Source: Minisyncoccota bacterium
Lineage (GTDB): Bacteria; Patescibacteriota; Minisyncoccia; Phycocordibacterales; UBA9973
Assembly: GCA_041662525.1 (NCBI GenBank)
Contig: JBAZSF010000005.1
Span: forward strand, 1 to 56,528
Direction of reading: 5' to 3'
Length of the DNA stretch: 56,528 bases
This document shows, in pieces, positions 5,198 through 54,156 of the stretch. How positions within the stretch are numbered: position 1 is the stretch's first letter; every line of letters begins with the position of its first letter. The position numbers were made by a program, and so were the translations under genes. The notes below the pieces were generated by a model, which saw only the letters and a list, made by a program, of their open reading frames with translations, was not told where the DNA came from and searched no databases.

Positions 5198-5216
5198 TCC
5201 GCCAGAGGCGGACAGG
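5198..5216 (-). repeat. Palindromic repeat family A copy in the secD leader
   Basis: TCCGCC-aga-GGCGGA-cagg; the minus strand reads CCTGTCCGCCTCTGGCGGA. Confidence 0.7.
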
Positions 5217-5228
5217 TGTGGAAGAATT

Positions 5229-6596
5229 ATGATTAAAAAATTAATTTTATCTATTTTTATACTTTTATTAGGTGCTGGGATTGGCTTTTTTGTTTACAAA
5301 TCAGAAGCTAATTATAGGAAATTACCTGTAGGTGCTAAAGCCACTGGTCTAGCAAAATTTTCTTTTAAACTAGGACTTGATCTTTCAGGAGGTAGTCATT
5401 TGATATACAAAGCTGATACTTCTTTGGTTCCAGCAGGTCAAGTAGGAGATTCAATGAACGCACTTCGTGACGTAATCGAGCGACGTATAAATCTTTTTGG
5501 AGTTTCTGAGCCGGTGGTGCAGGTGCAACATGGTGGATTTGTTTCTGGCAATAGCGATGAACAATTGATAGTAGATCTTCCAGGAGTAACTGATGTTAAA
5601 CAAGCAATAGATATGATCGGACAGACTCCGCTTCTTGAATTTAAAATAGAAGCACCAAAAGACATTCCTCAAACTGCGACTGTAGATAAAGACGGCAAGG
5701 TAACTCTTGATATAGATTCTCAGTTTGTTCCCACCGAACTTACTGGAAGATATTTAGAGAAAGCAACTTTAGAATTTGACACAAATACTCGTGAACCAAA
5801 AGTAAGTCTACAGTTTGATGATACTGGCACAAAACTTTTTGCTCAAATTACAAGAGATAATGTCGGAAAGATGGTTGCTATTTATTTAGATGGCACTCCT
5901 ATTTCTTCACCAGTTGTTCGAGAAGAAATTCCAAATGGTCAAGCTGTTATTTCTGGCAGTTTTACTCCAGCTGAAGCAAAAATATTTGTTGGTCGGTTAA
6001 ATTCTGGAGCACTTCCTGTACCGATAACACTTCTTTCTACTCAGACTATCGGTGCTACCCTAGGAGATAGCGCAGTAAATGCTGGGGTGAAGGCTGCAAT
6101 TATTGGATTCCTATTAGTGGCTTTATTTCTCATTCTTTTATATCGTTTGCCTGGCTTGATAGCGACTATCTCTCTTTGTATTTTTATCGTTATAATACTT
6201 GCTCTTTTTAAGTTAATTCCTGTTACTTTAACAGCAGCTGGTATCGCTGGGTTTATAATTTCTATGGGTATAGCCGTAGATGCAAATGTGCTTATTTTTG
6301 AACGCGTAAAAGAAGAATTGCGTTCTGGTAAAAGTATCGCTGATTCAATTTCCATTGGTTTTTCTAGAGCTTGGTTTTCTATTCGAGATTCAAATATTTC
6401 AAGTTTTATTACAGCAGTAATTCTCTTCTGGTTTGGCACATCTTTGATAAAAGGTTTTGCGTTGACTCTTGGCATGGGGATCATTGTTTCAATGTTTAGT
6501 GCAATTATCGTTACTAGAATTTTTCTCTCAACTATTGGTTTTATAGGAGAAGGGAAAATCGCCAGATTTTTATTTTCAAGCGGTCTATCAAAATAA
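5229..6596 (+). CDS. secD: Protein translocase subunit SecD
   Basis: LGLDLSGG, VIERRINLFGVSEP, GPT/GAT-LG segment, AVDANVLIFERVKEE. Confidence 0.96.
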   Translation: MIKKLILSIFILLLGAGIGFFVYKSEANYRKLPVGAKATGLAKFSFKLGLDLSGGSHLIYKADTSLVPAGQVGDSMNALRDVIERRINLFGVSEPVVQVQHGGFVSGNSDEQLIVDLPGVTDVKQAIDMIGQTPLLEFKIEAPKDIPQTATVDKDGKVTLDIDSQFVPTELTGRYLEKATLEFDTNTREPKVSLQFDDTGTKLFAQITRDNVGKMVAIYLDGTPISSPVVREEIPNGQAVISGSFTPAEAKIFVGRLNSGALPVPITLLSTQTIGATLGDSAVNAGVKAAIIGFLLVALFLILLYRLPGLIATISLCIFIVIILALFKLIPVTLTAAGIAGFIISMGIAVDANVLIFERVKEELRSGKSIADSISIGFSRAWFSIRDSNISSFITAVILFWFGTSLIKGFALTLGMGIIVSMFSAIIVTRIFLSTIGFIGEGKIARFLFSSGLSK

Positions 6597-6615: not shown

Positions 6616-7536
6616 ATGTTTATAATAAAACACAAAAAAATATTTATCATCCTATCATCCATCTTAGTTATTCTTTCCTTTATCTCTTTGTTTATTTTTG
6701 GATTAAAAATAGGTATTGATTTTAAGGGTGGGGCAATTATAGAAGTTGCTTATAAAATAGAGCGTCCAGCGCAACCTGTTTTAGAGAAGACTCTCTCGAC
6801 TCTTGATTTTGGGTCTGTTCTTCTTCAGCCGACAGGAGACCTTGGTTATATTATAAAGACTCGTAGTTTAAATGATTCCGAACACGTTTTACTTTTAAAA
6901 ACACTTTCTGGGGACAATAAAGACGCTCTCACTGAAATGAGTTTTAATTCTGTCGGTCCTTCTGTTGGGCAAGAACTTACCAGGAAAGCAATTTTAGCGA
7001 TTATTTTAATTTCGCTTGCCATTATTTGTTTTATTGCTTTTGCTTTTAGAAAAGTTTCTAAACCAATTTCTTCTTGGAAGTATGGAATTATTGCCATTAT
7101 TACACTTTTGCACGATGTGTTTATTCCAGTAGGGTTATTTGTTGTTCTTTCTCATTATTTTGGGGCAGAAGTAGATACTCTGTTTGTGGTGGCAATTCTT
7201 ACTATTTTAGGTCTTTCTGTTTCTGACACAATAGTTATTTTTGATAGAATTAGGGAAAATTTGAGAAATCAAAATTCGATAGCTAAAGTAAACTTTAGTG
7301 AAGTAGTGGGTGTTAGTTTAGAACAATCATACATAAGATCTATTTCTACTTCTTCGACGGTTATCCTTGTGCTTCTTGCTTTGTTCTTTTTCGGTCCCGT
7401 ATCTACAAAATATTTTGCCTTGATGCTTACGGCTGGAATGTTTTTTGGTACTTACTCTTCAATTTTCTTGGCTTCACCCCTGCTTGTGTTCGTGGAAGAG
7501 TGGCAGAAGAAAAATGCTCCCAATACAAAAGCATAG
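6616..7536 (+). CDS. secF: Protein translocase subunit SecF
   Basis: GIDFKGG, VGPSVGQEL, LLHDV, DTIVIFDRIREN, GTYSSIFLASP. Confidence 0.96.
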   Translation: MFIIKHKKIFIILSSILVILSFISLFIFGLKIGIDFKGGAIIEVAYKIERPAQPVLEKTLSTLDFGSVLLQPTGDLGYIIKTRSLNDSEHVLLLKTLSGDNKDALTEMSFNSVGPSVGQELTRKAILAIILISLAIICFIAFAFRKVSKPISSWKYGIIAIITLLHDVFIPVGLFVVLSHYFGAEVDTLFVVAILTILGLSVSDTIVIFDRIRENLRNQNSIAKVNFSEVVGVSLEQSYIRSISTSSTVILVLLALFFFGPVSTKYFALMLTAGMFFGTYSSIFLASPLLVFVEEWQKKNAPNTKA

Positions 7537-8154: not shown

Positions 8155-9084
8155 ATGGCAACGCTATATACACAACAATCAAAAAATGTTACTAAAACTT
8201 GGCTACTCATGTCGGTGTTTTTTGTGGTGGTTATTGGTTTTGGTTGGTTTTTTAGTTTTTATTATAGTAATCCAAATATACTGTATTTCTTTGTCATCTT
8301 TAGTATTTTAATGAATTTTTTTTCTTATTGGTTTTCAGATAAAATTGTGCTTACTTTAGCTGGCGCAAAATTAGCTAAAAGAGAAGAATATTTTGATCTT
8401 TATACGAGTGTTGAGAACCTTTCAATTACAGCTGGACTGCCAATGCCAAAAGTATATGTGGTACAAGACTCTGCACCAAATGCTTTTGCTACAGGTAGAG
8501 ATAAAAACCATGCTGTTGTTTGTGCTACTACCGGACTTTTGCAAATTTTAAACAAAACTGAATTAGAAGGGGTAATTGCGCATGAACTTTCACATGTCGG
8601 GAATCGTGATATGTTGCTCTCCACTGTCGTTGTGGTACTTGTCGGCTTTATAACAATTCTCGCAGATTTTTTTACCAGAAGTTTATTTTTTGGTGGTTTT
8701 GGTAAAAATAGAGACAATGACAACAAAGGAAGTGGTGTACTTGTGATTATTGGAATTGTTTTGTCGATATTAGCACCACTTTTTGCAGTTTTAATTCAAC
8801 TAGCCATTTCTAGGAAACGTGAGTTTTTAGCTGATGCTTCTGGAGCATTACTTACTCGCTATCCAGAAGGTTTGGCGAATGCATTGCGTAAAATTTCTAA
8901 ATATAGTCAGCCAATGGCTCGTCAATCTAGCGCAATCGCACATCTGTATATTGCAGATCCAAAGGGATCAAAAATTGGTTTACCCGCCTCTGGCGGCGCC
9001 AAAGGCGACCAGGGTAAAAAAATCAGTGGATTTTTTGCCACCCATCCGCCAGTGGAAGAGAGAATAAAAGCATTGGTGGGATAG
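8155..9084 (+). CDS. htpX: HtpX-like M48 zinc metalloprotease
   Basis: PNAFATG, HELSH, SRKREFLAD, THPP; adjacent to lemA. Confidence 0.93.
   Translation: MATLYTQQSKNVTKTWLLMSVFFVVVIGFGWFFSFYYSNPNILYFFVIFSILMNFFSYWFSDKIVLTLAGAKLAKREEYFDLYTSVENLSITAGLPMPKVYVVQDSAPNAFATGRDKNHAVVCATTGLLQILNKTELEGVIAHELSHVGNRDMLLSTVVVVLVGFITILADFFTRSLFFGGFGKNRDNDNKGSGVLVIIGIVLSILAPLFAVLIQLAISRKREFLADASGALLTRYPEGLANALRKISKYSQPMARQSSAIAHLYIADPKGSKIGLPASGGAKGDQGKKISGFFATHPPVEERIKALVG
8983..9007 (+). repeat. Family A palindrome plus a second small hairpin, in frame in htpX (PASGGAKG)
   Basis: CCGCC-tct-GGCGG (reverse complement of the 5199-5211 13-mer), then CGCC-aaa-GGCG. Confidence 0.7.
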
Positions 9085-9842: not shown

Positions 9843-10211
9843 ATGACTGGAAGAAAATTGAAATATAAAGGTATGTCGGTAAATATGTTTGGTTTACCTA
9901 GTTTCAGTGATTCTTATAAGGAAAATAAAATACTAAAAATACCTAAACGGAAATATCTTCAATCTTTTATTTCTGATTTTAAAAAAGATGCACCAAAAAA
10001 CTTACTTCTTATATATGATATTCCAGAAGGAAGAAAAAAAGAAAGAGATTGGTTTCGTCGCCAGCTTAGAAATTTTGATTTTGTTATGATCCAAAGAAGT
10101 GTTTGGGTTGGACCGTCGCCTCTCCCGGTAGAATTTCTTGCTTATTTAAAAAGAATTGGATTACAGAAAGAATTCAAAACATTCAAACTGGCCAAATCAT
10201 ATAAGACCTAA
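9843..10211 (+). CDS. Solo Cas2-like / PaaX C-terminal-like ferredoxin-fold protein
   Basis: LLLIYDIPEGRKKERDWFRRQLRNFDFVMIQRSVWV matches the YDI...R..L...GF..LQ.SVW pattern shared by Cas2 and PaaX. Confidence 0.75.
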   Translation: MTGRKLKYKGMSVNMFGLPSFSDSYKENKILKIPKRKYLQSFISDFKKDAPKNLLLIYDIPEGRKKERDWFRRQLRNFDFVMIQRSVWVGPSPLPVEFLAYLKRIGLQKEFKTFKLAKSYKT

Positions 10212-12901: not shown

Positions 12902-12974
12902 GTCGGCGTAGCTCAGTTAGTAGAGCACGGGACTCATAAGCCCGGGGTCGCAGGCGCACTCCCTGCCGCCGACA
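12902..12974 (+). tRNA. tRNA with CAT anticodon (elongator Met or Ile2), atypical T loop
   Basis: Acceptor GTCGGCG/CGCCGAC, D arm GCTC/GAGC, anticodon 12935-12937, T loop CGCACTC. Confidence 0.8.
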
Positions 12975-18472: not shown

Positions 18473-19384
18473 ATGGAAAAAGACACAAATGAAATTATAA
18501 AAGAAATAGAAAGATTAGAAGCAGAAATGCAATCTGCTGATTTTTGGAATGATAAAAATAAAGCGCAGGCGACGTTGAGAGAACTTGCGACGTTGAAAGA
18601 AAAAAAAGAAGGGGTAAATAAATACGATAAAGGAAATGCTGTGATTACAATAATTTCTGGTGCTGGAGGGGAAGATGCAGAAGATTTTTCTGCCATGCTT
18701 TTATCTATGTATCTAAAATATGCCGAGAAACATGGTTGGCAGATTTTTTTAATTCATGAAAATAAAAATAATGATAATGGATATAGGAATGTTTCTTTTG
18801 AAATTTCCTCCCCTGATAAGGGGAGGGTAGGAGGGGTTGGTCCCTATGGAATATTGAAAAATGAAAGTGGCGTGCATCGCTTGGTACGAATTTCACCTTT
18901 TGATGCAAAAAAATTACGGCACACTTCTTTTTCCATGGTGGAAATTTTGCCAAAATTTTCCAGACTGGAAGAAAAAGATTTTATTATCCCCGTAGCTGAT
19001 TTAAAGATAGAATATTCTCGTTCCGGAGGTCCTGGAGGGCAGAATGTAAACAAAAGGGAGACAGCTGTTCGCTTGGTGCATATACCTACAGGAATAGCGG
19101 TGCATGCCTCCAATGAACGTTCTCAAGAGCATAATCGCGAGCGGGCGATGTCTATTCTTTTGGCGAAAATTTTCAAAAAAGCGCAAGAGGACAAGAAAAG
19201 CATGGAAGAAAGTCTAAAATTAACTAGAAATACTGAAATAGAGTGGGGGAATCAGATTCGCTCTTATGTATTGCACCCTTACAAAATGGTCAAAGATCAT
19301 CGAACTGGAGTAGAAACATCAAATGTTGATGCAGTTTTAGATGGTGGCTTGGATATTTTCATTGAGGCAGAGAAGAATTTGTAA
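18473..19384 (+). CDS. prfB: Peptide chain release factor 2, shortened N-terminal domain, no frameshift site
   Basis: [18 protein letters not shown] (SPF), [22 protein letters not shown]; start re-assigned to 18473 because the track ORF runs through tRNAs. Confidence 0.93.
18807..18836 (+). repeat. Family B-like palindrome in frame in prfB
   Basis: CCTCCCCT-gata-AGGGGAGG followed by gtaggagggg; encodes SPDKGRVGG. Confidence 0.75.
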
Positions 19385-19834: not shown

Positions 19835-20077
19835 ATGACAACAAAAATTCAAAAATGGGGAAATAGTTTAGCGGTGCGAATACCGAATGAATTTGCAAAA
19901 AACCTCAATTGGTCTTCTGGCGCTATCGTGAGTTTTCAGCAATCAGGAAATAAAATGATTATTACTTCTAGCCGTCCTAAATATACTTTAGAGCAAATGG
20001 TGAAAGGGATGACAAAGAAAAATAGGCATAAATCTCTATGGCCAAATGATAAGCCAAGAGGTAAGGAAATATGGTAA
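19835..20077 (+). CDS. mazE: AbrB/MazE-family antitoxin
   Basis: IQKWGNSLAVRIP; YTLEQMV. Confidence 0.92.
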   Translation: MTTKIQKWGNSLAVRIPNEFAKNLNWSSGAIVSFQQSGNKMIITSSRPKYTLEQMVKGMTKKNRHKSLWPNDKPRGKEIW

Positions 20078-20409
20078 AAAATCTAGCAATTCCAGAAAGA
20101 GGCAACATTGTTTGGATTGATTTTAGCCCAACAAAAGGCCATGAGCAGTCAGGCCTGCGTCCAGCTGTAGTAATTTCTTCAAATGAATATAATTCTTTTT
20201 CTGGCTTGGTCTTGGTTTGTCCTATGACTAGTAAACACAAAGGTTATTTTTTTGAAGTTTTAATAAAAGGACCAAAAGAAAAGTCTTTTGTTTTGGCTGA
20301 CCAAATAAGATCTTTTGATATAAAAGAAAGGATAAAAAAGATAACAGGGAAAGTCACTGTATTGGAAATTAATGAAATTTTAGGGAGAGTTTCAGTTTTG
20401 TTTGAATAA
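20071..20409 (+). CDS. mazF: PemK/MazF-family toxin
   Basis: DFSPTKGHEQSGLRPAVVIS, CPMTS, LADQIRSFD; overlaps the antitoxin stop. Confidence 0.92.
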   Translation: MVKNLAIPERGNIVWIDFSPTKGHEQSGLRPAVVISSNEYNSFSGLVLVCPMTSKHKGYFFEVLIKGPKEKSFVLADQIRSFDIKERIKKITGKVTVLEINEILGRVSVLFE

Positions 20410-30872: not shown

Positions 30873-31520
30873 ATGTCTCTGTTTACAAAAAGAGAAATTA
30901 CGCTAATGCGGAGATTGGATACGCCTGCCAAGGTGCAGGATTTTTTAGATGGATTTAAATTTAATTTTGAGAAAGGTGGGGAGACATTAAAATCTCCTAT
31001 TTTAACCTTGAGAGCGCGAAACGCGCATTGCTTCGAAGGAGCGCTTCTTGGAGCTTATATATTGTCTTTACATGGTTTCACCCCCTATTTAATGCATTTT
31101 AAAGTAATAAAAGGAGATTATGACCACATCATTACTCCGTTTAAGGTTGGTGGTCTTTGGGGGGCATTGTCTAAAACCAATCATGCAGTTTTGCGTTATC
31201 GTGAGCCAATATATAAGAATGTTAGAGAACTCGCAATGTCTTATTTTCACGAATATTTTTTAAATGATAGGAGAAAAACTCTTCGGCAATATTCTACCCT
31301 TTTTAATTTAAAAAATTTAAATAAACCTGCCCGCCCTCATGATAACTCTGGAGCAGGCGGGGATTGGGCAATTTCAGAGAAAGATCTTTGGTATTTAGAT
31401 AAAAAATTAGATAAAATAAAACATTACGATATTGTTCCAAAAGCTTATCTGAAAAAGCTTCGCAAAGCAGACAAGATTGAGATAGAAGCTACAAAAATTG
31501 TAGAGTTTAGAAAATACTAA
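30873..31520 (+). CDS. Conserved hypothetical protein, possibly transglutaminase/papain-like
   Basis: AHCFEGA ... DHII ... WGALSKTN..LRYREP; carries a family A insert. Confidence 0.7.
   Translation: MSLFTKREITLMRRLDTPAKVQDFLDGFKFNFEKGGETLKSPILTLRARNAHCFEGALLGAYILSLHGFTPYLMHFKVIKGDYDHIITPFKVGGLWGALSKTNHAVLRYREPIYKNVRELAMSYFHEYFLNDRRKTLRQYSTLFNLKNLNKPARPHDNSGAGGDWAISEKDLWYLDKKLDKIKHYDIVPKAYLKKLRKADKIEIEATKIVEFRKY
31326..31361 (+). repeat. Family A insert, in frame (PARPHDNSGAGG)
   Basis: CCTGCCCGCCCT-catgataactct-GGAGCAGGCGGG. Confidence 0.9.
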
Positions 31521-33727: not shown

Positions 33728-33776
33728 GGGACACATCCCAGTAGTAGAGCAAAGCTCACTACGGGACACGTAAAAT

Positions 33777-33890: not shown

Positions 33891-33917
33891 TTTCTTAGTA
33901 TATACTTACCATATATT

Positions 33918-34391: not shown

Positions 34392-35519
34392 ATAAATTCC
34401 GTATAACATTACTGCTCCTAAAATAAGAAAAATAAAATTAAAAGATGGAGTAAATAGAAAAACAATAAAGGCAATAAGTGGGGCTACAATATAAGCTATA
34501 GATCTAGAGTTGCGATAAATGCTGATAAATTCATCATTTTCTACATTTATATGTTTGAAAAAATATACATCGCTCATTACTTCTGTGATTGCAGCACCAA
34601 TTCTTGTACTAAAAAGAGCTATTGCCCAAATCCAAACTTCATGTTTCTCAATAAGAAAAAGTGATAAGGTAGAGATAGACGCTATCAAAAATCCTAACAT
34701 CATCATTTTTCTCTCACCGATTTTATCGGAATATTTACCCAGGGGGAATTGAATTAATACAAAAGGCAGAAGCATCACAGTGAACATCATGGCTATTTCT
34801 TTCCAACTAAAACCCAGATGTGCATATAAATATATCGGTGTATAAATGATCATCCAAACATAGAAAAATTGTAAAAGAAAATTTATTTTATAAGCACGAG
34901 TAAGATTTTTATTTATAAAGAAATTTTTAAACGATTGCCAAGCAAAAACTTTGTCATATTTGGGATCATTTAGATTCTTTAAGTTCCAAAATGTAGTGAT
35001 AAAAAAGATAGTCATTATTACAAAAGCAACAAAATAAAGGGTTGAAAAAGAAAATTTTGACAATATTTCGATAGAAAGAGCTTGAGAAATTACCCAAGCT
35101 AGACCCACGATAGAAAGATATAATCCACGCATTTTTCCCATTAATGAATTTTTGGAAAATATTTGCAGTAGTTCGTCTAAGGCAAAAACAATCAAATGGT
35201 TTAGGGTGAAATAGAAAATAAAGATTGAGATGATGAGAGCAGAACTTTTAAAGATAGATAATAAAAGAAGAGAAAGAGCATTCAGGCCTGATAAAAAAAG
35301 TAAGAATTTATATCCTCCTACTTTTCGGAGTATCCCGGGTATAAAAAAAAATACAAATAAAGAAATCAAAGAACCCAAGGCATATATTAAACCGACATTT
35401 TTTTCTCCTGAAAATGAAGAAAGAAAACTGGAGTTAATAAAAGAAGTGAATGCTAGTTGTAGAGATGCTAAAAACCCCAAAACAAAAATACTTTTTAATT
35501 TTGAATTTTTCGTAAACAT
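34359..35519 (-). CDS. MFS transporter
   Basis: About 12 TM segments; GKYSDKIGERK motif-A-like loop. Confidence 0.88.
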   Translation of the reverse strand: MFTKNSKLKSIFVLGFLASLQLAFTSFINSSFLSSFSGEKNVGLIYALGSLISLFVFFFIPGILRKVGGYKFLLFLSGLNALSLLLLSIFKSSALIISIFIFYFTLNHLIVFALDELLQIFSKNSLMGKMRGLYLSIVGLAWVISQALSIEILSKFSFSTLYFVAFVIMTIFFITTFWNLKNLNDPKYDKVFAWQSFKNFFINKNLTRAYKINFLLQFFYVWMIIYTPIYLYAHLGFSWKEIAMMFTVMLLPFVLIQFPLGKYSDKIGERKMMMLGFLIASISTLSLFLIEKHEVWIWAIALFSTRIGAAITEVMSDVYFFKHINVENDEFISIYRNSRSIAYIVAPLIAFIVFLFTPSFNFIFLILGAVMLYGIYLSSTIKRSDI

Positions 35520-35596
35520 CCCAGTACTAAAATTTTAAGTTTTTATTTTTAATGGTCATTTATTTTAATCAAAAATTTAGTACGGGACAGGTTTTT

Positions 35597-37624
35597 TTAT
35601 ACACTCAATATCACAGGTATAACTAATGGTCTTTTAGCTGTTTTTTGATATAAGAATTTTGAGATGTTTTCTCCTAAATTTGCTTTGATTATATCAAAAT
35701 TTACCATATTTCCATTTTGTGCGGATGCTACAGGCATTTTTGTCGTTATATTTTCTATGCCATTTTTAATAATTATTCTTACTTGGCGTAAAAGTTCTTG
35801 ATTTTCTTTTAAATAGACAAAGCCACGTGAAATCAAATCTGGAGACTTTTTTAATTTTCCAGTTTTTTGGTCAATGAGAGCGATAATAACAAACATTCCA
35901 TCTTGGGCGAGCATGACTCTGTCACGGATCACTATGTCTTGGGTGTCACTAATAGAAGCTCCATCTACTAACATAGCACCGCTTGGCGCGCGTTCTTTTC
36001 GCACAATCATTTTTTGTCCATCAGCAGATATTTCAATGACTGAGCCATTATCTGGGACAATTATATTTTCTTCTAGCATACCCCATTCTATTGCTAGTTC
36101 TTTGTGTTTTTCAAGAAAAGAATGGTGTCCATGAATTGGTATAAAGAATTTTGGATGAGTTTTTCTATGTAGCCATTTTACGTCTTCTTGGTTGCCGTGT
36201 CCTGTGGCGTGGACGAAATCCTCTCCAGCTGTTCGGTAGCTAATAACTTTTACACCTTGGCGAGAAAGGGCATCTTTCATCTTTTGGACTTGGAGTTCGT
36301 TACCTGGAACAACCGAGGCAGAAAGTATTATTGTGTCTCCTTTTTGTAAAGAGAATTTTGTATTTGATTTATTAGCAGCACGATTGAGCGCGGCAAATTC
36401 TTCTCCTTGCGCGCCTGTCATCAAAACGACGACTTTATTTGGGGGATAATTATTTGCTTCTTCTAGCGGAATTATTGTACCTTTTTTAGGAGTAAAGAAT
36501 CCGGCTTCAATAGCTACTTCAATATTTGTTTTCATAGATCTTCCATCCATGGCTACTTTTTTACCGAGCATTTCTGCTGTTTTTACAACATGAGCTAGAC
36601 GTGTGATGTGTGAGGAAAAAGCGGCAATAATTATTCGTCCAGGAATTTTCTTAATTAAATTTTCTAATCCCTGATGTACTTTTATTTCTGGCAAAGAAAA
36701 TCCTTCGTGTTCAATATTAGTAGAATCCGTCATCAATAAAAGTACTTTTGCTTTATCAAAAATCGAATACTCTTTTTCTTCTTCTTTGGAAACAATTCCA
36801 TCTACTTGATCAAGTTTGTAATCTCCAGGAGTGACGATCCATCCATGTGGTGTTTCTATAATTATCCCCATTGAATCTGGTATAGTGTGCGTAACACCAA
36901 AGAATCTAATTTTTATTTTTCCGCAGGTTATCACAGAATCTTTTTCAACAATATTTTCTTTCATAGGGGGTAGATGGGGGGATTCTGCCTGCCGTTTTTT
37001 CATCATCAGCATTGAAAGTTTTCTAGAATATACAGGAGGATTTCCTATACGTGAAAGAACCAATGGTACCCCTCCGATATGATCCAAGTGTCCATGAGTA
37101 ATTATCAAGGCCCGTATCTTTTCTTTACGTTCTTCCAGATATGTTGTATTTGGAATAACGTAATCAACCCCAGGGGTTAATTCATTTGAAAAATGCATTC
37201 CAGCATCTATCACGATGATATCATCACCGATTTCTATTGCTGTCATGTTTTTGCCGATTTCTTCTACTCCACCAAGTGGAATAATACGAATCACATTTTT
37301 TTCTACTGGTGGAATTTTCTCATTTAAAATTTTGTTTTGGTTTTTTATTCCGAAAGGGCGGGGTCTAGGGCTTTTACCAAATTTTTTTTGAGTATATTGA
37401 TAGGTAGAACTTTTTATCATCTTTTTTCTATGTTCCCCGCCTATCGATTGGCGGACAGGTCCATTTACATAATTAGGCTTGCTAGAATTGCGTCCTGTTA
37501 CACTTTGGGTGAGGGTAGTGTCATGGGTGGGTATTTTGTTTTCTTTCTTGTCCCCGCCTGCTCCTGTAGGGCGGGCAGGTTCAATCTTAAGTGAGGAAAA
37601 AGAAAGTCTTGTTTTTTTTATCAT
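35597..37624 (-). CDS. rnj: Ribonuclease J with a long low-complexity N-terminal extension
   Basis: IPLGGVEEIGKN, THGHLDHIGG, HTIPDS, HATGHG, PIHG, PDLISRGFVY. Confidence 0.95.
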   Translation of the reverse strand: MIKKTRLSFSSLKIEPARPTGAGGDKKENKIPTHDTTLTQSVTGRNSSKPNYVNGPVRQSIGGEHRKKMIKSSTYQYTQKKFGKSPRPRPFGIKNQNKILNEKIPPVEKNVIRIIPLGGVEEIGKNMTAIEIGDDIIVIDAGMHFSNELTPGVDYVIPNTTYLEERKEKIRALIITHGHLDHIGGVPLVLSRIGNPPVYSRKLSMLMMKKRQAESPHLPPMKENIVEKDSVITCGKIKIRFFGVTHTIPDSMGIIIETPHGWIVTPGDYKLDQVDGIVSKEEEKEYSIFDKAKVLLLMTDSTNIEHEGFSLPEIKVHQGLENLIKKIPGRIIIAAFSSHITRLAHVVKTAEMLGKKVAMDGRSMKTNIEVAIEAGFFTPKKGTIIPLEEANNYPPNKVVVLMTGAQGEEFAALNRAANKSNTKFSLQKGDTIILSASVVPGNELQVQKMKDALSRQGVKVISYRTAGEDFVHATGHGNQEDVKWLHRKTHPKFFIPIHGHHSFLEKHKELAIEWGMLEENIIVPDNGSVIEISADGQKMIVRKERAPSGAMLVDGASISDTQDIVIRDRVMLAQDGMFVIIALIDQKTGKLKKSPDLISRGFVYLKENQELLRQVRIIIKNGIENITTKMPVASAQNGNMVNFDIIKANLGENISKFLYQKTAKRPLVIPVILSV
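37436..37459 (-). repeat. Family A insert, in frame in rnj (PVRQSIGG)
   Basis: Minus strand CCTGTCCGCC-aatcgata-GGCGGG. Confidence 0.8.
37553..37579 (-). repeat. Family A insert, in frame in rnj (PARPTGAGG)
   Basis: Minus strand CCTGCCCGCCCT-aca-GGAGCAGGCGGG. Confidence 0.9.
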
Positions 37625-37637
37625 AAGTGATTTTGTT

Positions 37638-39392
37638 TTATCTATTGAATATTTTCCAAATGTTTTCTGTTTCAGAGAACCATGAATGTATGTTTGAAAA
37701 ACGATCAGCGGGTGAATTAATGTGATTAATAGAAAGACCTTTTAAATTTTTTGATATTACATAAATAAAATTAGGACTATAAAGGAAAATTGCTGGTATG
37801 TCTTTTTTGATTTCATCTTCAAATTGCGCGTATTTTTTTATTCTAGATTGTTCATTGATAGTGATAGAAGCATCCTCTAATATTTTATCTACTTTTGTAT
37901 TGGCATACATCGCGACGTTGAGACCAGGGTCTTTTCGTTGTGATGAATGCCAAAAAGCAGATAAATCAGATTCGTTATTTACAATTTGTCCAAACAATAG
38001 TGCATCATAATCACGTGGACGAATTACGCCTTGATTTAAATTACCAATCTCAAAAGTTTTTATGTCAACTTTCATTCCGATTTTTGCTAGATCTTGTTTG
38101 ATTATTTCGGCAGTTTTCGTGAGCTCTTCTGCATTTCCTGTAGAGATAGAAAATTCTAAGGTAGTAGTAGTTTTCTTTTTGTTTTTATCAGTTATTGTTT
38201 TTTGTAAAAATCCATCTGGACCTTTTGACCAGCCATCTTTCTTTAAACTATCTTGTACATTTTGCAAGATAAGTTCACGAGAAGAATTATTGTCTGCAGA
38301 CAATCTTTGGTAAGCAATCATATTAGGCGGGATAGGGTCGTCTATAGCCACTCCATATCCAAAAAGAACTTCTCGGACTATTTTATCTTTATCTATAGCT
38401 TGGTCGATTGCTTTTGTGATGACTTTGTTAGCAAAAAGAATATTTTTATTTTGATTAAAGAAAAGCCCGAATATTCTTGGGAGCACCGAAGAGTCTATTT
38501 GATAATTTCTTTCTTTTAAAATATCCGCGTTTAAAGGAGTGATAGAGCTTATCTGTTCTACTATGCCATCTTCGAGTGCGCTGATAAGAGCTTCTTCGTT
38601 TGAATAAAAATGTAAACTTATTTTTTTAATATATGGCTCACCCAATATAAATTTATCAAATGATTCTAATTCATAAGAATTTATGACCCCCGAGGATTCT
38701 TTAACGACACTTTTTATAAAATAAGGTCCAGAGCCGACAGGAGAAGTGTTTGCATTATTTAGTTCTATAGAAGAATTATTCCATAGGTGTTGGGGCATTA
38801 TTCCAAGTGTTAAATTTTCTAAAAATGATGGAAAGGGTTTTTTTAAGGAAAATTCTATAGTCTTTTCATCTATTTTTATTGCATTTATACCATCAAACTC
38901 TATTTTTAGCGGACTTTTCATAATCGGATCTTTTATCTCATTTATAGTAAATATAATATCATCCACCGTAACAGGTTTTCCGTCTTGAAAATATATTTTG
39001 TCCTTTAAAGTAAATGTATAATTTAAACCATCAGTAGACATTTCATATTTTTCTGCCAAGTCTGGAGAAAATGTACCATCAGGATTTTTTCTCATTAAGC
39101 CAGAATAAATAAGGGAGACGAGGTCAAGATCAGCAGGGGAGTTTGCTAGTATCGGGTTTATAAAACGAGGAGTACCGATAATGCCTTCAGAAATAGATCC
39201 TCCGTGAAGTGGCACGGTTACCATCAAAGATTTATTTATGCTCTCCAGTATTGAAATAGTGCTTATTAAGAAAGTTAAAAATAAGACAATAAAAATAATT
39301 TGTTCTTTTTTTGAGAACGTGTTGAAAATTGAATTGATTTCGTCTTTTTTAGGCAATTTAAAATTGCGAATGCGACTATATAAATTTTGCAT
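37638..39392 (-). CDS. Family 5 ABC-transporter peptide-binding protein
   Basis: INPILA, PDLAEKYEMS.DG..YTFTLK, DGKPVTVDDI, GSGPY. Confidence 0.9.
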   Translation of the reverse strand: MQNLYSRIRNFKLPKKDEINSIFNTFSKKEQIIFIVLFLTFLISTISILESINKSLMVTVPLHGGSISEGIIGTPRFINPILANSPADLDLVSLIYSGLMRKNPDGTFSPDLAEKYEMSTDGLNYTFTLKDKIYFQDGKPVTVDDIIFTINEIKDPIMKSPLKIEFDGINAIKIDEKTIEFSLKKPFPSFLENLTLGIMPQHLWNNSSIELNNANTSPVGSGPYFIKSVVKESSGVINSYELESFDKFILGEPYIKKISLHFYSNEEALISALEDGIVEQISSITPLNADILKERNYQIDSSVLPRIFGLFFNQNKNILFANKVITKAIDQAIDKDKIVREVLFGYGVAIDDPIPPNMIAYQRLSADNNSSRELILQNVQDSLKKDGWSKGPDGFLQKTITDKNKKKTTTTLEFSISTGNAEELTKTAEIIKQDLAKIGMKVDIKTFEIGNLNQGVIRPRDYDALLFGQIVNNESDLSAFWHSSQRKDPGLNVAMYANTKVDKILEDASITINEQSRIKKYAQFEDEIKKDIPAIFLYSPNFIYVISKNLKGLSINHINSPADRFSNIHSWFSETENIWKIFNR

Positions 39393-45365: not shown

Positions 45366-46370
45366 ATGAAAAACCAAAACCAAAAAGAAAATAAGATAAA
45401 GATTTTTTATTCAAAAGACTGGCCCCTCGGCTCTGCTCGGGACAAGACAGGATATGAGCTCATTGATACAGGCGAAGGGGAAAAGTTGGAGAGGTTTGGG
45501 AAGTACACTTTTGTGCGTCCGTATGAGGATGCCGTGTGGCCGAAAACCTTAGAAGGTAAGGAATGGGCAAAAGCTGATGGAAAATTTTGGAGCTCAAAAG
45601 TGGGAGCCAAGGCTGGATGGAAAATGTCAAAGACCGTCTTTGACATGAAGGCAAAATGGGAGATGGAATATAAAGGTATAAAATTTCTTGCGATGCCTAC
45701 ACCTTTTAGGCATCTAGGATTTTTTCCAGAACAAGCGAGTCATTGGGATTTTATAGAGATCAAAATTAAGGAAGTTTTAAATTCTCGAGGTCGGACCTCG
45801 GGCTCCCTTGAGGTCCGACCTCTAAAATTCTTAAACTTATTTGGTTACACTGGAGTCGCAAGTTTATTTGCACTTCGTGCTGGTGCGGAGGTAACACATG
45901 TTGACGCTTCAAAGCAAACATTGAATTGGGCAAAAGAAAATCAAAATTTAAATGTTGAGTTAGTTGAAGCACCTATGCGGGTGATAGAAGATGATGTTAT
46001 GAAATTTTTAGAACGAGAAATAAAAAGAGGTAATAAATATGATGCAGTGATAATGGATCCCCCGAAATTCGGCAGAGGGCCAAAAGGAGAAATATGGAAG
46101 ATTGAAGAAATGTTGCCGAAGCTTTTATCACAAGTGCAAAAAGTTTTAAGCGATAAACCACTTTTCGTGATTTTAACTTCTTACGCGATTGATTCTTCTT
46201 CGCTTTCTTTGGGCTATGCTCTCGAAGATATGATGAAACCTGCCCGCCCTACTGAGTCGGGAGCAGGCGGGGATTTTAATGGCACCGTCGAAACAGGTGA
46301 ACTTTGTGTATTAGAAAAGTCCAACAATCGCATCATTCCACTTGCTAATACGGCTGTGTGGAGCGTATAA
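45366..46370 (+). CDS. Class I SAM-dependent methyltransferase (RlmI/RlmK-like)
   Basis: GEGEKLERFG, HLGFFPEQ, LNLFGYTG, HVDAS, MDPPKFG; carries three repeat inserts. Confidence 0.9.
   Translation: MKNQNQKENKIKIFYSKDWPLGSARDKTGYELIDTGEGEKLERFGKYTFVRPYEDAVWPKTLEGKEWAKADGKFWSSKVGAKAGWKMSKTVFDMKAKWEMEYKGIKFLAMPTPFRHLGFFPEQASHWDFIEIKIKEVLNSRGRTSGSLEVRPLKFLNLFGYTGVASLFALRAGAEVTHVDASKQTLNWAKENQNLNVELVEAPMRVIEDDVMKFLEREIKRGNKYDAVIMDPPKFGRGPKGEIWKIEEMLPKLLSQVQKVLSDKPLFVILTSYAIDSSSLSLGYALEDMMKPARPTESGAGGDFNGTVETGELCVLEKSNNRIIPLANTAVWSV
45423..45446 (+). repeat. Family E insert, in frame (PLGSARDK)
   Basis: CCCCTCGGCTCTGCTCGGGACAAG, a GC-rich island between DW and TGYELID. Confidence 0.65.
45787..45822. 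repeat. Family C double palindrome, in frame (RGRTSGSLEVRP)
   Basis: GAGGTCGGACCTC-gggctccctt-GAGGTCCGACCTC; each arm is itself palindromic and the arms are reverse complements. Confidence 0.9.
46239..46271 (+). repeat. Family A insert, in frame (PARPTESGAGG)
   Basis: CCTGCCCGCCCT-actgagtcg-GGAGCAGGCGGG. Confidence 0.9.
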
Positions 46371-47405: not shown

Positions 47406-50234
47406 ATGAAAGAATACGATCATAAGAAAATTGAAAAAAAATGGCAAACTATCTGGGAGAAAAAAGGAATCTATCGTGCTCAAAATAATTCTAAGAAGAA
47501 AAAGTTCTACAACTTAATTGAATTTCCTTATCCGTCCGGAGATGGTATGCATGTGGGGCACATCAGAAGCAATACCGCTATGGATATAATTTCTCGCAAA
47601 CGCAGAATGGAAGGTTTTAATGTTCTTTATCCTATAGGTTGGGATGCTTTTGGTTTACCGACAGAAAATTATGCTATAAAAACAGGCAAGCAACCCGCAG
47701 TCATTACGAAAAAGAATACAGATACTTTTAGAAGACAGCTTCAGTCTATCGGTTTTTCTTTTGACTGGTCGCGGGAAATAAACACTACCGATCCGAAATA
47801 TTACAAATGGACTCAGTGGATATTTTTGCAGTTTTTTAAAAAAGGTTTGGCATATAAAGCCAAAATGACTATTAATTGGTGCCCAAAAGATAAAATAGGT
47901 CTTGCCAATGAAGAAGTAATAGATGGATGTTGTGAGCGTTGTGGAACACAAGTCGAGCAAAGGGAGAAAGAGCAATGGATGCTCGCAATTACTAAATACG
48001 CCGATAGACTTTATAAAGATTTAGATGATGTGGATTATCTTCCACAAATAAAACTTGGACAGAGAAATTGGATAGGGAAAAGTGAGGGAGCAGAGATTGA
48101 ATTTCAAATTGAGTTTCCGGACGTCCAACGTCCGAATTCTGTGAAAATTTTTACGACTCGACCTGACACTATTTTTGGTGCGACATATCTCGTACTTGCG
48201 CCAGAACATGAATTAGTTCAGAAATTAAAATCTCAAATTACAAATTGGAAAGAGATAGAAAATTATATCAGGGAAACAAAAAACAAAACTGAGATAGAAA
48301 GAAATGTTGAAGATAAAATAAAAACAGGAGTAGAATTAAAAGGGATAAAAGCAGTCAACCCTGCGACTAAAAAAGAGATTCCAATATGGATTGCAGATTA
48401 TGTGCTTGTCACCTATGGCACAGGAGCGATAATGGCTGTACCAGCACATGATGAACGTGATTTTGCATTTGCGAAAAAATATGATTTGGAAATAATAAAT
48501 GTTATTGAGCCTGTTTATATTGATAGACCAAAAGAAGATTTGTCTTTTATTGAACGAGAAGCGATTCATGCCATTGTTAAGCATTGGAAAGAAGATAAAT
48601 ATCTTGCTTTAAAATGGAAAAAAGTTAATTGGCTTACTTTTATAACTGGTGGTGTGGAGTCTGGAGAAAATACTAAAGATGCTGCAATACGAGAGATTCA
48701 AGAAGAAACCGGATATCAAAATTTAAAACTTATAAAAGAATTCCCGCGTTCACATAGTAAGTTTTATCATGAGCCCAAAAAAGAAAATCGTTTTGCGCAT
48801 TTTTCCAATTTTTATTTTCAACTTATTAATGATGAGCAAAAAGAATTATCTCAAGAAGAACAAGAAATACATGAATTAAGATGGATGACCACGCAAGAAC
48901 TAGAAAAAGAAATGACGATAGGTGGTGCTCTTCGAGATTTAGAAAATTTACAAGGTAAAGAGAAAACTTATTCTGGTACAGGAATACTTACGAATTCTGG
49001 TAAATTTGATGGATTTGATTCTGAAAAAGCCAAAAAAGAAATTATTAAATTTGTTGGAGGAAAAGAGAAGGTGACTTTCAAGCTTCGTGATTGGATTTTT
49101 TCTCGTCAGCGATATTGGGGTGAGCCGATACCAGTAATTCATTGTGAAGATTGTGGAATGGTGCCTGTGCCTGAAAAAGATTTACCAGTAGAGCTTCCAA
49201 AAGTAAAAAATTATCAGCCGACGGATAGTGGAGAGTCACCACTTGCGAATATCTCCAAATGGGTAAATGTAAAATGCCCGAAATGTAAAGGCAAAGCCAA
49301 GAGAGAAACAGACACAATGCCAAACTGGGCGGGTTCTAGTTGGTATTATCTTCGTTATACGGATTCGAAAAATAATAAAGAATTTGCCAGCAAAAAGAAT
49401 TTAAAATATTGGACACCAGTGGACTGGTACAATGGAGGGAATGAACATACTACCCTTCATCTTTTATATTCACGTTTTTGGCATAAATTTTTATTTGACT
49501 TAAAACTTGTACCTACATCTGAGCCATATAAAAAGCGTACTTCTCATGGCATGATTTTAGGTGGGGGAGGCGTAAAAATGTCGAAATCACTTGGAAATGT
49601 GATAAATCCAGACGATATAGTCAAAACATACGGCGCGGACACCTTGCGTCTTTATGAGATGTTTATGGGTCCTTTTAATCAATCTGTCGCTTGGAGCGAA
49701 GAAGCTATCATTGGTCCAAGGAGATTTTTAGAAAGAGTTTGGAATCTTCAATCTAAAATACAAAAAAATAAAAAATATAATGAGTTTGAGATTGAAAAAG
49801 CTATAAAAAAAGTCGGAGAGGATATTGAAGAGATGAAGTTCAATACAGCTGTTTCGACTTTAATGATTTTTATTAATGAAATTAGTAAGCTTGAATCTAT
49901 TTCACAGATGGCTTATGAAAAATTTTTAAAGATTCTTTCCCCATTTGCGCCTCATATAACTGAAGAGTTATGGCAAATATTGGGTTATAAAAAATCAATT
50001 AATCAGGAATCATGGCCGGTTTTTGATCTTTCAAAAATTCAAGACTTCGAACTAAAAATCGCAGTACAAATAAATGGAAAAGTTAAAGCAGAGATAATGA
50101 TATCACCTGAGGATGATGAGGAAATAGTAAAGAAAAAAGCATTTGCAAATGAAGCTGTTTTGAGACATACATCCGGCAAAGATATAAAAAAGGTATTTTA
50201 TGTTAAAAATAGACTTATCAATATAGTTTTTTAG
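47406..50234 (+). CDS. leuS: Leucine--tRNA ligase with an internal NUDIX domain
   Basis: FPYPSG..MHVGH, GWDAFGLP, FTTRPDT, GTGAIMAVPAHDERD, SRQRYWGEP, KMSKS. Confidence 0.97.
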   Translation: MKEYDHKKIEKKWQTIWEKKGIYRAQNNSKKKKFYNLIEFPYPSGDGMHVGHIRSNTAMDIISRKRRMEGFNVLYPIGWDAFGLPTENYAIKTGKQPAVITKKNTDTFRRQLQSIGFSFDWSREINTTDPKYYKWTQWIFLQFFKKGLAYKAKMTINWCPKDKIGLANEEVIDGCCERCGTQVEQREKEQWMLAITKYADRLYKDLDDVDYLPQIKLGQRNWIGKSEGAEIEFQIEFPDVQRPNSVKIFTTRPDTIFGATYLVLAPEHELVQKLKSQITNWKEIENYIRETKNKTEIERNVEDKIKTGVELKGIKAVNPATKKEIPIWIADYVLVTYGTGAIMAVPAHDERDFAFAKKYDLEIINVIEPVYIDRPKEDLSFIEREAIHAIVKHWKEDKYLALKWKKVNWLTFITGGVESGENTKDAAIREIQEETGYQNLKLIKEFPRSHSKFYHEPKKENRFAHFSNFYFQLINDEQKELSQEEQEIHELRWMTTQELEKEMTIGGALRDLENLQGKEKTYSGTGILTNSGKFDGFDSEKAKKEIIKFVGGKEKVTFKLRDWIFSRQRYWGEPIPVIHCEDCGMVPVPEKDLPVELPKVKNYQPTDSGESPLANISKWVNVKCPKCKGKAKRETDTMPNWAGSSWYYLRYTDSKNNKEFASKKNLKYWTPVDWYNGGNEHTTLHLLYSRFWHKFLFDLKLVPTSEPYKKRTSHGMILGGGGVKMSKSLGNVINPDDIVKTYGADTLRLYEMFMGPFNQSVAWSEEAIIGPRRFLERVWNLQSKIQKNKKYNEFEIEKAIKKVGEDIEEMKFNTAVSTLMIFINEISKLESISQMAYEKFLKILSPFAPHITEELWQILGYKKSINQESWPVFDLSKIQDFELKIAVQINGKVKAEIMISPEDDEEIVKKKAFANEAVLRHTSGKDIKKVFYVKNRLINIVF
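48118..48134. repeat. Family D palindrome, in frame in leuS
   Basis: CGGACGT-cca-ACGTCCG, encoding PDVQRP. Confidence 0.6.
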
Positions 50235-52442: not shown

Positions 52443-52449
52443 ATCAAGG

Positions 52450-54156
52450 ATGGAGAAGATCTTAAAAATTTTTACTAAACAATCTGGAAGCATAAATCAA
52501 GCCGCATTTCTTTTGGGTTTTCTTACTTTATTATCTCAAATTTTAGCACTTTTCCGTGATCGGTCTATTGCGCATTTTATTGGACCTTCTCCATCGCTAG
52601 ATGCTTATTATGCGGCTTTTCGGGTGCCAGATTTGATTTTTATTTGTATAGCCTCTCTGGCTTCTATCACTGTGCTCATTCCTTTTATTGTGGCAAAAAT
52701 GCCTGCCCGCGCAGGCGGAGATGGAGACAAGGTTACTGATGCAGCACGAAAATATTTAAATGATATTTTTACCGTTTTCTTTTCTCTGATGGTATTTGTT
52801 TCTTTGGGGGCGTTTTTTCTGATGCCTTATTTAATATCTTTTATTGCTCCAGGTTTTACTCCATTTTATCAAGCAAAGGTTATTTTGCTTTCACGAATAA
52901 TGTTACTTTCTCCTATTTTGATGGGTCTTTCAAATCTTTTTGGTACAGTTACTCAGCTTTTTCATAAATTTTTTATATATTCTTTGAGTCCAGTTTTTTA
53001 TAATTTGGGGATTATTATTGGTGTTATATTTCTTTATCCTTTTTTTGGAATTTATGGGTTGGCTCTCGGTGTTGTTCTCGGGGCTTTTATGCATTTTGGA
53101 ATACAGGTCCTAGCAGCGCGCTCTTCTGGCTTTACCCTAAAATTCTCCCTTTTTCCTTTTACAATTAATTTTAAAGATATTAAAAATACGGCGCTAACAT
53201 CGCTTCCTCGTACGCTTGGTCTTGCTTTTAACAATATTGCGCTTATTTTTATTATAGGGATGGCTTCTTTTTTGGAAAGTGGCTCTATCTCGATTTTTAA
53301 TTTTTCATTCAATCTTCAATCAGTACCACTTAATATCATCGGCATCTCTTATGCCGTGGCGGCTTTTCCGACTTTAGCTAAATCTTTTTCAAATGGCAAA
53401 AAAGAGGAATTTAAAAAACATCTAAAAGAAGCATCACGAGCTATTGTATTCTGGTCTCTGCCAGTAATATTTATTTTTATTGTTCTTCGGGCGCAGATAG
53501 TGCGTGTGATTCTTGGTTCCGGGTCTTTTTCTTGGGACAATACTCGTCTGGTCGCAGCCGCCCTCGCGATCTTTTCCATTTCTATCCTTGCTCAGGGGAT
53601 GACGACATTGCTTTCTCGCTCTTACTATGCGACCAGTAATACAAAACGCCCTCTCATTATAAATTTTTCTTGTTCTATTTTAATTATAATTTTAGCTTAT
53701 GTATTTATCCATCTCTTTCAAAATGTCTTAATGTTCCGCTTCTTTATAGAATCTTTATTAAAGGTAAATGATATTCCAGGGACAGAGGTGCTCATGTTGC
53801 CACTGGCGTATTCTGTCGGCACGATTTTGAATTTTATTTTATATTGGGTTTTTGTAAAAAAAGATTTTATGCCGAATGAATCTTTCATCACCAAAACTTT
53901 TTTCCAGAGTTTTGCTGCTTCATTTTTTCTTGGCTTAGTCGCTTATTTGAGTTTAAATATTCTTTCACCGATTTTTGGCTTGACTACATTTTGGGGTGTT
54001 TTTTTACAAGGATTTATTTCTGGAATTTTAGGTATCATTGTTGCTGTATTTGTTTTATACTTATTAAAGAGCGAAGAATTAAAAGATTTGATAGATACTT
54101 TTGCTACTAAATTCTGGCGTGCAAAAATCATTGCTCCAATTCAAGAAGGACTCTAA
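52450..54156 (+). CDS. murJ: Lipid II flippase MurJ (MviN)
   Basis: LALFRDR, DAYYAAFRVPD, SPVFYNLGII, AAFPTL, SRSYYA..NTKRP. Confidence 0.93.
   Translation: MEKILKIFTKQSGSINQAAFLLGFLTLLSQILALFRDRSIAHFIGPSPSLDAYYAAFRVPDLIFICIASLASITVLIPFIVAKMPARAGGDGDKVTDAARKYLNDIFTVFFSLMVFVSLGAFFLMPYLISFIAPGFTPFYQAKVILLSRIMLLSPILMGLSNLFGTVTQLFHKFFIYSLSPVFYNLGIIIGVIFLYPFFGIYGLALGVVLGAFMHFGIQVLAARSSGFTLKFSLFPFTINFKDIKNTALTSLPRTLGLAFNNIALIFIIGMASFLESGSISIFNFSFNLQSVPLNIIGISYAVAAFPTLAKSFSNGKKEEFKKHLKEASRAIVFWSLPVIFIFIVLRAQIVRVILGSGSFSWDNTRLVAAALAIFSISILAQGMTTLLSRSYYATSNTKRPLIINFSCSILIIILAYVFIHLFQNVLMFRFFIESLLKVNDIPGTEVLMLPLAYSVGTILNFILYWVFVKKDFMPNESFITKTFFQSFAASFFLGLVAYLSLNILSPIFGLTTFWGVFLQGFISGILGIIVAVFVLYLLKSEELKDLIDTFATKFWRAKIIAPIQEGL
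52702..52719 (+). repeat. Short family A insert, in frame in murJ (PARAGG)
   Basis: CCTGCCCGC-GCAGGCGGA followed by GAT. Confidence 0.8.

Follow-up and report, generated by a model that had tools for sequence, protein, structure and literature searches.

Seven copies of a GC-rich hairpin in one contig

The DNA analysed here is a stretch of 56,528 nucleotides (nt), hereafter the window, from contig JBAZSF010000005.1 of a Minisyncoccota bacterium whose source habitat is groundwater (metagenome). The GC content of the window is 34%, and the proteins closest to its RNase J (76-88% identity) belong to Paceibacterota/Nomurabacteria, within the Candidate Phyla Radiation (CPR, or Patescibacteria). 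The window carries seven copies of a short GC-rich palindromic repeat, family A. Six of the seven are intragenic, and all six are in sense orientation, in frame and read as peptides ending with Gly-Gly.

The full-length copy, of 36 nt (CCTGCCCGCCCT-CATGATAACTCT-GGAGCAGGCGGG), lies at 31326..31361 (+) in a 215-amino-acid (aa) open reading frame (ORF; 30873-31520) of unknown function, where it reads PARPHDNSGAGG. It is flanked by AAA and GAT, and its hairpin folds with -15.2 kcal/mol. A 33-nt copy at 46239..46271 (+), with the same AAA/GAT flanks, reads PARPTESGAGG in the ORF of an RlmI/K/L-like RNA methyltransferase (45366-46370). RNase J (ORF 35597-37624) has two minus-strand copies in its N-terminal extension, namely a 27-nt copy at 37553..37579, read PARPTGAGG, and a diverged 24-nt copy at 37436..37459 (CCTGTCCGCC-AATCGAT-AGGCGGG), read PVRQSIGG. 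The MurJ ORF (52450-54156) contains an 18-nt, tip-deleted copy, CCTGCCCGC|GCAGGCGGA, at 52702..52719 (+), read PARAGG. A non-coding 19-nt copy, CCTGTCCGCC-TCT-GGCGGA, is located at 5198..5216 (-) between dedA and secD, ending 12 nt before the secD start. It is opposite in orientation (CCTGTCCGCCTCTGGCGGA on the minus strand) and folds with -9.1 kcal/mol (z = -3.1). Finally, the HtpX ORF (8155-9084) holds a 15-nt minimal hairpin, CCCGCC-TCT-GGCGGC, at 8983..8997 (+), read PASGG. It has the 13-nt core CCGCCTCTGGCGG, and nothing more, in common with the non-coding copy, so that its membership in family A, as a possible short or degenerate form, is plausible on sequence grounds. The closest relatives of this HtpX reach at most 65% identity and the loop is of variable length, and an insertion at that site stays a candidate.

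An initial annotation of the window had listed these seven sequences, and each was found again at its position. The strand, frame and translation of the six coding copies were also verified, as was the AAA^GAT context of two of them (31326-31361 and 46239-46271). The arms CCTGCCCGCCCT…GGAGCAGGCGGG-GA, which it had described as common to three copies, are indeed identical in these, with middles of 12, 9 and 3 nt.

Chance and assembly artefact can be ruled out as sources of the pattern. Six exact matches to the 9-mer CCTGYCCGC are present in the window, as compared with 0.13 expected (100 dinucleotide-preserving shuffles, none of which reaches 6), and all CCGCC…GGCGG pairs of the window belong to the family A set, two tRNAs aside. 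An independent assembly, contig L001, carries identical repeat copies, and 89-94% of the sampled words of the region are present in each of two sequencing runs from different studies (2018 and 2022). L001 is 99.92% identical to window positions 25597-39392 (13.8 kb) and wholly divergent past 39392. Beyond that point, positions 1-3005 of L001 hold secG, a RAYT-like Y1 transposase gene (RAYTs are tyrosine transposases associated with REPs, the repetitive extragenic palindromic sequences) with flanking GCAAGAACNGTTCTTGC palindromes, and genes for an asparaginase and a SurA-like protein. The divergence at 39392/39393 reflects either a rearrangement at strain level or a join made in assembly.

Sequence anatomy and folding

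Members of family A range from 15 to 36 nt, the full form consisting of exact 12+12-nt arms around a variable tip. On the top strand, an unpaired CCTG tail is followed by CCCGCC, CTC, the variable tip, GAG, a CA bulge, GGCGGG and, usually, GA. The bottom strand accordingly reads NNTC-CCCGCC…GGCGGG-CAGG, i.e. a tag, a hairpin and a C-tail. The tag position is occupied by ATC, GTC or TTC in the window copies, and GA follows the element in 45-75% of all copies. Outside the window, the predominant full form is the 36-mer CCTGCCCGCCCT-CACGATAGTTCG-GGAGCAGGCGGG, translated PARPHDSSGAGG. In its predicted fold, four 5' nucleotides (CCUG) are unpaired, six base pairs are formed between CCCGCC and GGCGGG, and a CA bulge on the 3' side separates these from a CUC:GAG stem that carries the variable tip. 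Family A elements fold with -15 to -23 kcal/mol and are GC-rich imperfect palindromes, as are the tagged REPs (20-40 bp). A second subfamily, CCTGCCCGCAAT-GCTTCGCATGGC-GATGCAGGCGGG, translated PARNASHGDAGG, has only the termini in common with family A.

The tips behave differently inside and outside genes. Non-coding variants with fully paired tips exist, e.g. CUCCCGA-UGG-UCGGGAG, and non-coding tips are significantly paired (17 of 74 unique elements having at most 5 of 100 shuffles equally stable), whereas coding 12-nt tips are no more stable than shuffled ones. The 12-nt tips show weak covariation, namely a single double change plus several wobble changes, and RNA-type covariation support is not claimed for them. 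The 36-nt 'His-Asp/Glu-x-Ser' subfamily is confined almost entirely to gene interiors. Middles of 9, 6, 3 and 0 nt look like the products of stepwise loss of the hairpin tip from 12 nt; inside genes, the tip losses are all in-frame.

For the repeat itself, Rfam returned no family at gathering thresholds in the window and 20 loci, nor by E-value around a GIY-YIG-adjacent copy (see below). Full-text literature searches with the arm sequences, or for CPR together with palindromes and in-frame insertion, yielded nothing relevant. It may be added that the Parcubacteria contig JBBDZA010000048.1 (L087) contains, around 7260-7530, at least four head-to-tail 36-mers in one open frame (PARPHDSSGAGG repeated), with a run of N between them.

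Filled and empty sites

The history of individual copies was examined by comparison with orthologues, using 80 related CPR loci around a neighbouring 942-aa gene. In the methyltransferase, seven syntenic orthologues (68-77% identity) are without exactly the 33 nt of the element, reading ATG AAA | GAT TTT (protein MMK|DF). The MurJ site, AAA ATG | GAx, is without an element in eight orthologues. At this site L141 has CCT GCC CGT CAA CTC TCT GGC GGG (PARQLSGG), and L123 has two tandem copies of different subfamilies. The 27-nt copy of RNase J is missing from all close homologues (up to 88% identity), which read LKIEE|KKE. The reciprocal case is provided by CTP synthase: a 36-nt copy is found at one site in L020 and L080 and at another site in L047, and the CTP synthase of the window is empty at both.

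In every case compared, the filled and empty alleles differ by the element alone, with zero duplicated target bases; the target-site duplication that marks miniature inverted-repeat transposable elements was seen at none of these sites. Empty-site alleles, on which the initial reading of the palindromes as insertions depended, thus exist for the methyltransferase, MurJ and the 27-nt RNase J copy. Judged from these alignments, these copies are DNA insertions and not ancestral residues.

The 24-nt copy of RNase J has degenerate orthologous versions in homologues (GPARQSAGGE, GPASQSAGRE, GPARLPAERG, GSARHSAGGE and further decayed forms), which means that it is old, inherited and decaying. The element had been proposed to be active or recent; a recent origin holds for the 27-nt copy of RNase J and fails for its 24-nt neighbour. 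Insertion, decay and shrinkage of the tip are all visible as stages at defined sites.

Reading frame, orientation and target site

The bias in frame and orientation was evaluated beyond the window in loci of less than 45% GC, counting copies set 25 codons or more inside open frames that are 200 codons or longer. Among the matches listed, 39 of the 84 strict copies in such AT-rich loci are deep inside long ORFs; 35 of these 39 are sense and 29 read the sense PARP…GAGG frame (p = 3e-15 against 1/6; p = 9e-6 against 0.39). The bias noticed in the window is therefore also present in other AT-rich genomes. The Gly-Gly ending, initially described as invariable, holds for all six coding copies of the window and is not universal elsewhere. 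Middle lengths are a multiple of 3 in 104 of 128 elements among the matches listed. The sense frame-0 copies in long ORFs all have lengths divisible by 3 and are free of stop codons, from which it follows that the inserts must be translated and not removed. Lengths of 10, 11, 17 and 20 nt are limited to non-genic positions or GC-rich loci.

Part of the frame bias can be traced to the target. The left flank is AAA (Lys in 24/49) and the right flank GA (Asp/Glu in 27/49), and among the AAAGA sites of the window ORFs 147 of 381 (39%) are in sense phase 0. The AAA|GA target is thus itself phase-biased, the AAA|GAN site being a Lys-Asp/Glu codon pair, and target preference accounts for part of the observed bias. 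This preference would also tend to steer inserts to hydrophilic Lys-Asp/Glu stretches. We attribute the excess over 39% to selection against the other frames; two of the six frames of the canonical 36-mer contain stop codons. The initial annotation had left the choice between frame-aware insertion and purifying selection open, and both appear to contribute.

Distribution across genomes

A one-genome-per-species collection was scanned for the exact arms with 0-30 nt between them. More than 119 loci of species-representative genomes contain them. According to record titles, the matches listed include about 64 CPR loci (Saccharibacteria, Paceibacterota, Nomurabacteria and others), about 10 Neomarinimicrobiota loci and about 15 loci of the PVC group (Planctomycetes, Verrucomicrobia and Chlamydiae) and Omnitrophota. 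A few GC-rich matches with odd middles are probably due to chance. Among the copy-rich genomes are DATKGV01, with seven strict copies in six of the loci retrieved, and CAYPAN01. The family is not private to the genome of the window; one repeat, with 24 identical arm nucleotides, is common to several phyla. Viral contigs with the exact arms number 2 of 2.9 million (IMG/VR). About 10 related hairpins were counted in 843 kb of the relatives of the window as compared with 7 in its 56 kb, which indicates expansion in this genome; the 7 kb of contig beyond the window contain no further family A copy. In 16% of cases, non-coding and other non-frame-0 copies form the tip of an inverted repeat that is longer and specific to the locus, versus 3.4% in permuted controls.

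Placement in host proteins

In an AlphaFold2 model of RNase J (47 homologues), residues 1-102 have a predicted local distance difference test score (pLDDT) below 50 and are without secondary structure. Both inserts, at residues 16-24 and 56-63, fall within this segment. At the MurJ, HtpX and CTP synthase sites, a segment of variable length separates conserved blocks; the MurJ insert is located in a loop between two hydrophobic segments, and that of the methyltransferase is C-terminal to the Pfam domain match (residues 153-261). These placements are in line with the earlier proposal of flexible surface loops, the sites being variable loops or, for RNase J, a segment predicted to be disordered. 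Other hosts of family A include UvrD/PcrA (three loci), topoisomerase I (two) and RecR. The repeat provides a concrete source of variable loops and disordered extensions in the proteins of reduced genomes. In practical terms, family A inserts distort alignments and length comparisons, which matters for annotation.

Other hairpins were noted as well. The N-terminal 100 residues of eight RNase J homologues (P0016, P0017, P0020, P0029, P0039, P0041, P0047 and P0050) contain T-D-V-G-R…R-R-P-T-S or D-A-P-R-L…R-R-P, and back-translation of these peptides would give a second palindrome family, GACGTCGGACG…CGTCCGACGTC. The disordered N-terminal segment of RNase J has the appearance of a patchwork made up of remnants of hairpins. 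Within the methyltransferase, 45789-45820 is a GC-rich perfect hairpin (GGTCGGACCTC…GAGGTCCGACC) that is in frame (GRTSGSLEVRP) in a loop whose length varies among orthologues. GC-rich perfect hairpins also lie at 48118-48134 (CGGACGTCCAACGTCCG), inside the 942-aa ORF, and at 18807-18826 (CCTCCCCTGATAAGGGGAGG), inside a release-factor ORF. The three suggest that further in-frame hairpin families exist.

A small GIY-YIG protein next to family A copies

An all-against-all comparison of the ORFs within 1.5 kb of strict copies revealed one recurrent neighbour, a small single-domain GIY-YIG protein of 79-87 aa. In L014, L028, L090 and L102, a non-coding copy precedes the GIY-YIG start codon by 17-31 nt, so that 4 of the 6 small GIY-YIG genes in strict loci have an adjacent copy. 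The full bottom-strand CGTC-CCCGCC…GGCGGG-CAGG is present in three of these four loci (L014, L090 and L102).

SsnA-type GIY-YIG proteins (94 aa in N. meningitidis, cd10448) are site-specific nucleases of single-stranded DNA (ssDNA; Chenal et al. 2025, PMC11893778). They bind the NTS hairpins, also described by an Ssn-related motif (SRM), CGTC-AT-TCCCGCG…CGCGGGA-AT-CYRG, which lie beside their own gene and exist in hundreds of copies (PMC11893778). The C right after the palindrome is critical for Ssn binding, and the three bases before the palindrome are critical for cleavage (PMC11893778). The four related loci, together with the resemblance in layout, point to a link of the same kind for family A; this part of the interpretation is weaker than the insertion evidence and falls short of demonstrated membership.

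Interpretation

Taken together, the data make it probable that family A is a hairpin DNA repeat of the REP/SRM class, which inserts in genes and persists where its copies are in frame, possibly with an Ssn-type GIY-YIG partner. The mobilising mechanism is inferred. The comparisons show that copies enter the DNA cleanly, with no duplicated target bases, and that they favour sites between GA and a preceding A-rich triplet, mostly AAA. Most insertions in gene-dense CPR genomes would hit genes. Only copies with lengths divisible by three, read as Pro-Ala-Arg-Pro…Gly-Ala-Gly-Gly, would then persist. That this frame persists would follow from the target being a Lys-Asp/Glu codon pair (phase-0 bias, hydrophilic segments) and from selection against the remaining frames and orientation. 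Old copies are seen to stay and decay, and tips shrink in 3-nt steps (12, 9, 6, 3). The trans-acting partner may be the small single-domain Ssn-type GIY-YIG nuclease, binding the hairpin as ssDNA, though this step is put forward with less assurance than the others.

Several observations weigh against this scheme. With regard to the partner, neither the window nor the adjoining 7 kb contains a GIY-YIG gene, and three of the four GIY-YIG associations may represent one orthologous locus (hairpin, GIY-YIG, tRNA). The GIY-YIG neighbours give weak matches to NCBIfam GIY-YIG models, and their nearest proteins in the PDB are UPF0213 proteins (E = 8e-7). Moreover, the published SRM consensus, HGTCWYN(0-2)YYVSBRHN(0-5)WNVSBRGN(0-2)RNCYNB, matches the NTS control and none of the family A copies of the window or adjacent to GIY-YIG genes, because family A is without the two A-T pairs at the base of the stem and is longer. 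With regard to decay, the arms of the L020 and L080 CTP synthase copies are identical at 24/24 positions, though the host proteins share only 70% identity, synonymous sites in the flanks are not the same and 5 of the 12 tip positions differ; also, three genomes have different variants at one MurJ site. Such data suggest either that the arms are under nucleotide constraint or that insertion recurs at hot spots; a purely selfish, decaying element does not predict the identical CTP synthase arms. It should be noted that arm conservation is inflated by ascertainment, the loci having been found via exact arms, and that the freely decaying RNase J copy argues against constraint on the arms at the nucleotide level. 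Lastly, no insertion event was seen directly, the two metagenome runs having given fragmented mixed-strain unitigs and no clean presence/absence joint.

The same CTP synthase and MurJ data, and the likeness of the arms in several phyla, are what could be expected if the hairpin were kept for a function of the host in DNA or RNA (protein-binding site, control of recombination or transformation, pausing or stability of mRNA) and were not a tolerated selfish insert. The control of transformation by NTS/Ssn, demonstrated in Neisseria (PMC11893778), provides a model for such a role. We nevertheless regard a host function as doubtful: the old copy in RNase J is decaying freely in both DNA and protein, most orthologues do without inserts, and coding tips are no stabler than their shuffled versions, to which the ascertainment already mentioned must be added.

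A more specific and somewhat bolder version of that idea, which we consider unlikely, is that an Ssn-like GIY-YIG nuclease recognises family A as its cognate ssDNA site, and that the repeat has been placed within essential genes, in a single orientation, for marking, cutting or controlling ssDNA during transformation or at replication forks or transcription bubbles. If this were so, CPR bacteria, which depend on imported DNA, would carry a code for recombination or uptake control within their coding sequences, and selection for that role would have left its mark in the arms that are identical at orthologous sites and in the sites that were filled more than once.

Mobilisation of family A as a classical REP or REPIN (paired REP hairpin) by a RAYT, a Y1 HUH tyrosine transposase of IS200/IS605 type, would agree with insertion without target duplication and with a hairpin bearing an unpaired tetranucleotide, both typical of that system, and RAYT-like Y1_Tnp genes are present in the 99.9%-identical sister contig L001, in L128 (two copies) and in L124, L138 and L139. 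The RAYT genes of L001, L128 and L124, however, have another palindrome at their flanks, GCAAGAACNGTTCTTGC or a variant, which is absent from the window. In addition, no RAYT is found in the window (best tblastn E = 0.01) or within 1.5 kb of any strict copy, and family A has no GTAG tag. RAYT was accordingly rejected as the mobiliser, since it carries its own flanking palindrome, and we hold this origin to be improbable.

Two further explanations are very improbable. That the PARP…GAGG peptide is selected at the protein level, as a convergent or transferable module (linker, cleavage or modification site), would fit the same frame in 74% of intragenic copies and the retention of P-A-R and G-G through synonymous changes in the MurJ variants, yet identical GC-rich codons, third positions included, recur in unrelated proteins of a 34% GC genome, the peptides decay, and the existence of non-coding (some of 35 nt), antisense and other-frame copies largely refutes this reading. 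As to an insert that is absent from the protein because it is cut out of the mRNA or bypassed in translation, in the manner of the 'byp' elements of Magnusiomyces mitochondria, the general picture of GC-rich hairpins in AT-rich coding DNA is the same, but the sense frame-0 copies in long ORFs are all stop-free multiples of 3, as expected only if translated, the 10-, 11-, 17- and 20-nt variants occur solely outside genes or in GC-rich loci, and no Rfam family matches.

Other features of the window

The 3' part of the 23S rRNA gene (1-707) spans 707 nt for model positions 2504-2925 (422 positions), meaning that about 285 extra nt are inserted in the gene; the insert matches no intron or other Rfam family. 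A tRNA with CAT in the anticodon loop, found by Rfam and missed by ARAGORN, lies at 12902-12974 and has an unusual T arm (GCAGG-CGCACTC-CCTGC). Also present are a small ORF with a Cas2-like or PaaX central domain (9843-10211; no CRISPR array was noticed nearby), a MazF/PemK-type toxin ORF (20071-20409) and a cobalamin riboswitch (33760-33908, minus strand) upstream of the minus-strand ORFs 33266-33769 and 31507-33348. The region 29027-29938, about 900 nt without an ORF of at least 100 aa, contains GC-rich hairpins at 29521-29537 and 29640-29662 and has no Rfam match.

Comparison with known systems

Palindromic repeats that are in frame inside genes (Rickettsia palindromic elements, RPEs, and intragenic REPs) and pairs of a hairpin and a GIY-YIG protein (NTS/Ssn) are already known. 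No published description was found of family A, of its coding-restricted 36-nt subfamily, of its spread over CPR, Marinimicrobia and PVC, or of a codon-pair target.

With REP/REPIN-RAYT systems, family A has in common a hairpin repeat with an unpaired tetranucleotide and the absence of target duplication. It differs in being without a GTAG tag, and the RAYT genes of its relatives are flanked by another palindrome.

The Rickettsia precedent invoked at the outset proved apt. As with the Rickettsia elements in general, insertion is in frame and leaves the ORF intact, as seen for family A in the orthologue comparisons. RPE-1 resembles family A as a palindromic repeat in frame in functional genes, to which it adds a surface peptide. 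It differs in being about 100-150 bp long and confined to Rickettsia, whereas family A measures 15-36 nt and bears no evident relation to it in sequence, the two having been compared by description rather than by alignment. The short RPE-4 and RPE-6 are closer still. Together with Neisseria dRS3, they belong to the CGTC-tagged REPs (Di Nocera et al. 2013, PMC3733652) and have the same layout as the bottom strand of family A. CGTC-tagged REPs are also found in frame inside genes, often genes of DNA replication or repair (PMC3733652).

The resemblance to this last class extends to several traits: a short stem-loop rich in GC that ends in a short tail on one side and in an apparent unpaired tetranucleotide tag on the other, occurrence in several phyla, no dedicated transposase, and a fraction of copies in frame in ORFs, often of replication or repair genes. 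In contrast, the stem of family A is longer, bulged and without two basal A-T pairs; its tag is often just NNTC and its tail CAGG instead of CCA. Moreover, REPs are mainly extragenic while 6 of 7 copies in the window are intragenic, and family A has a 36-nt subfamily that is essentially coding-restricted, with hosts in CPR, Marinimicrobia and PVC. In-frame colonisation of genes by hairpins, best known from Rickettsia, thereby extends to CPR/Patescibacteria.

The NTS/SRM repeats are themselves CGTC-tagged REPs of Di Nocera et al. Family A resembles the NTS/SsnA system in the order of tag, hairpin and C, in the CCCGC/GCGGG core, in being directional and multi-copy in several phyla, and in having, at four loci, a copy beside the gene of a small single-domain GIY-YIG protein (79-87 aa). 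It differs in that it falls outside the SRM consensus, in that NTS repeats are intragenic in just 2% of cases, and in that the hairpin stands only on the 5' side of the GIY-YIG genes found here. If the candidate pairing of the hairpin with a small GIY-YIG protein is true, it would extend the Ssn ssDNA nucleases to a new type of motif and to uncultured lineages.

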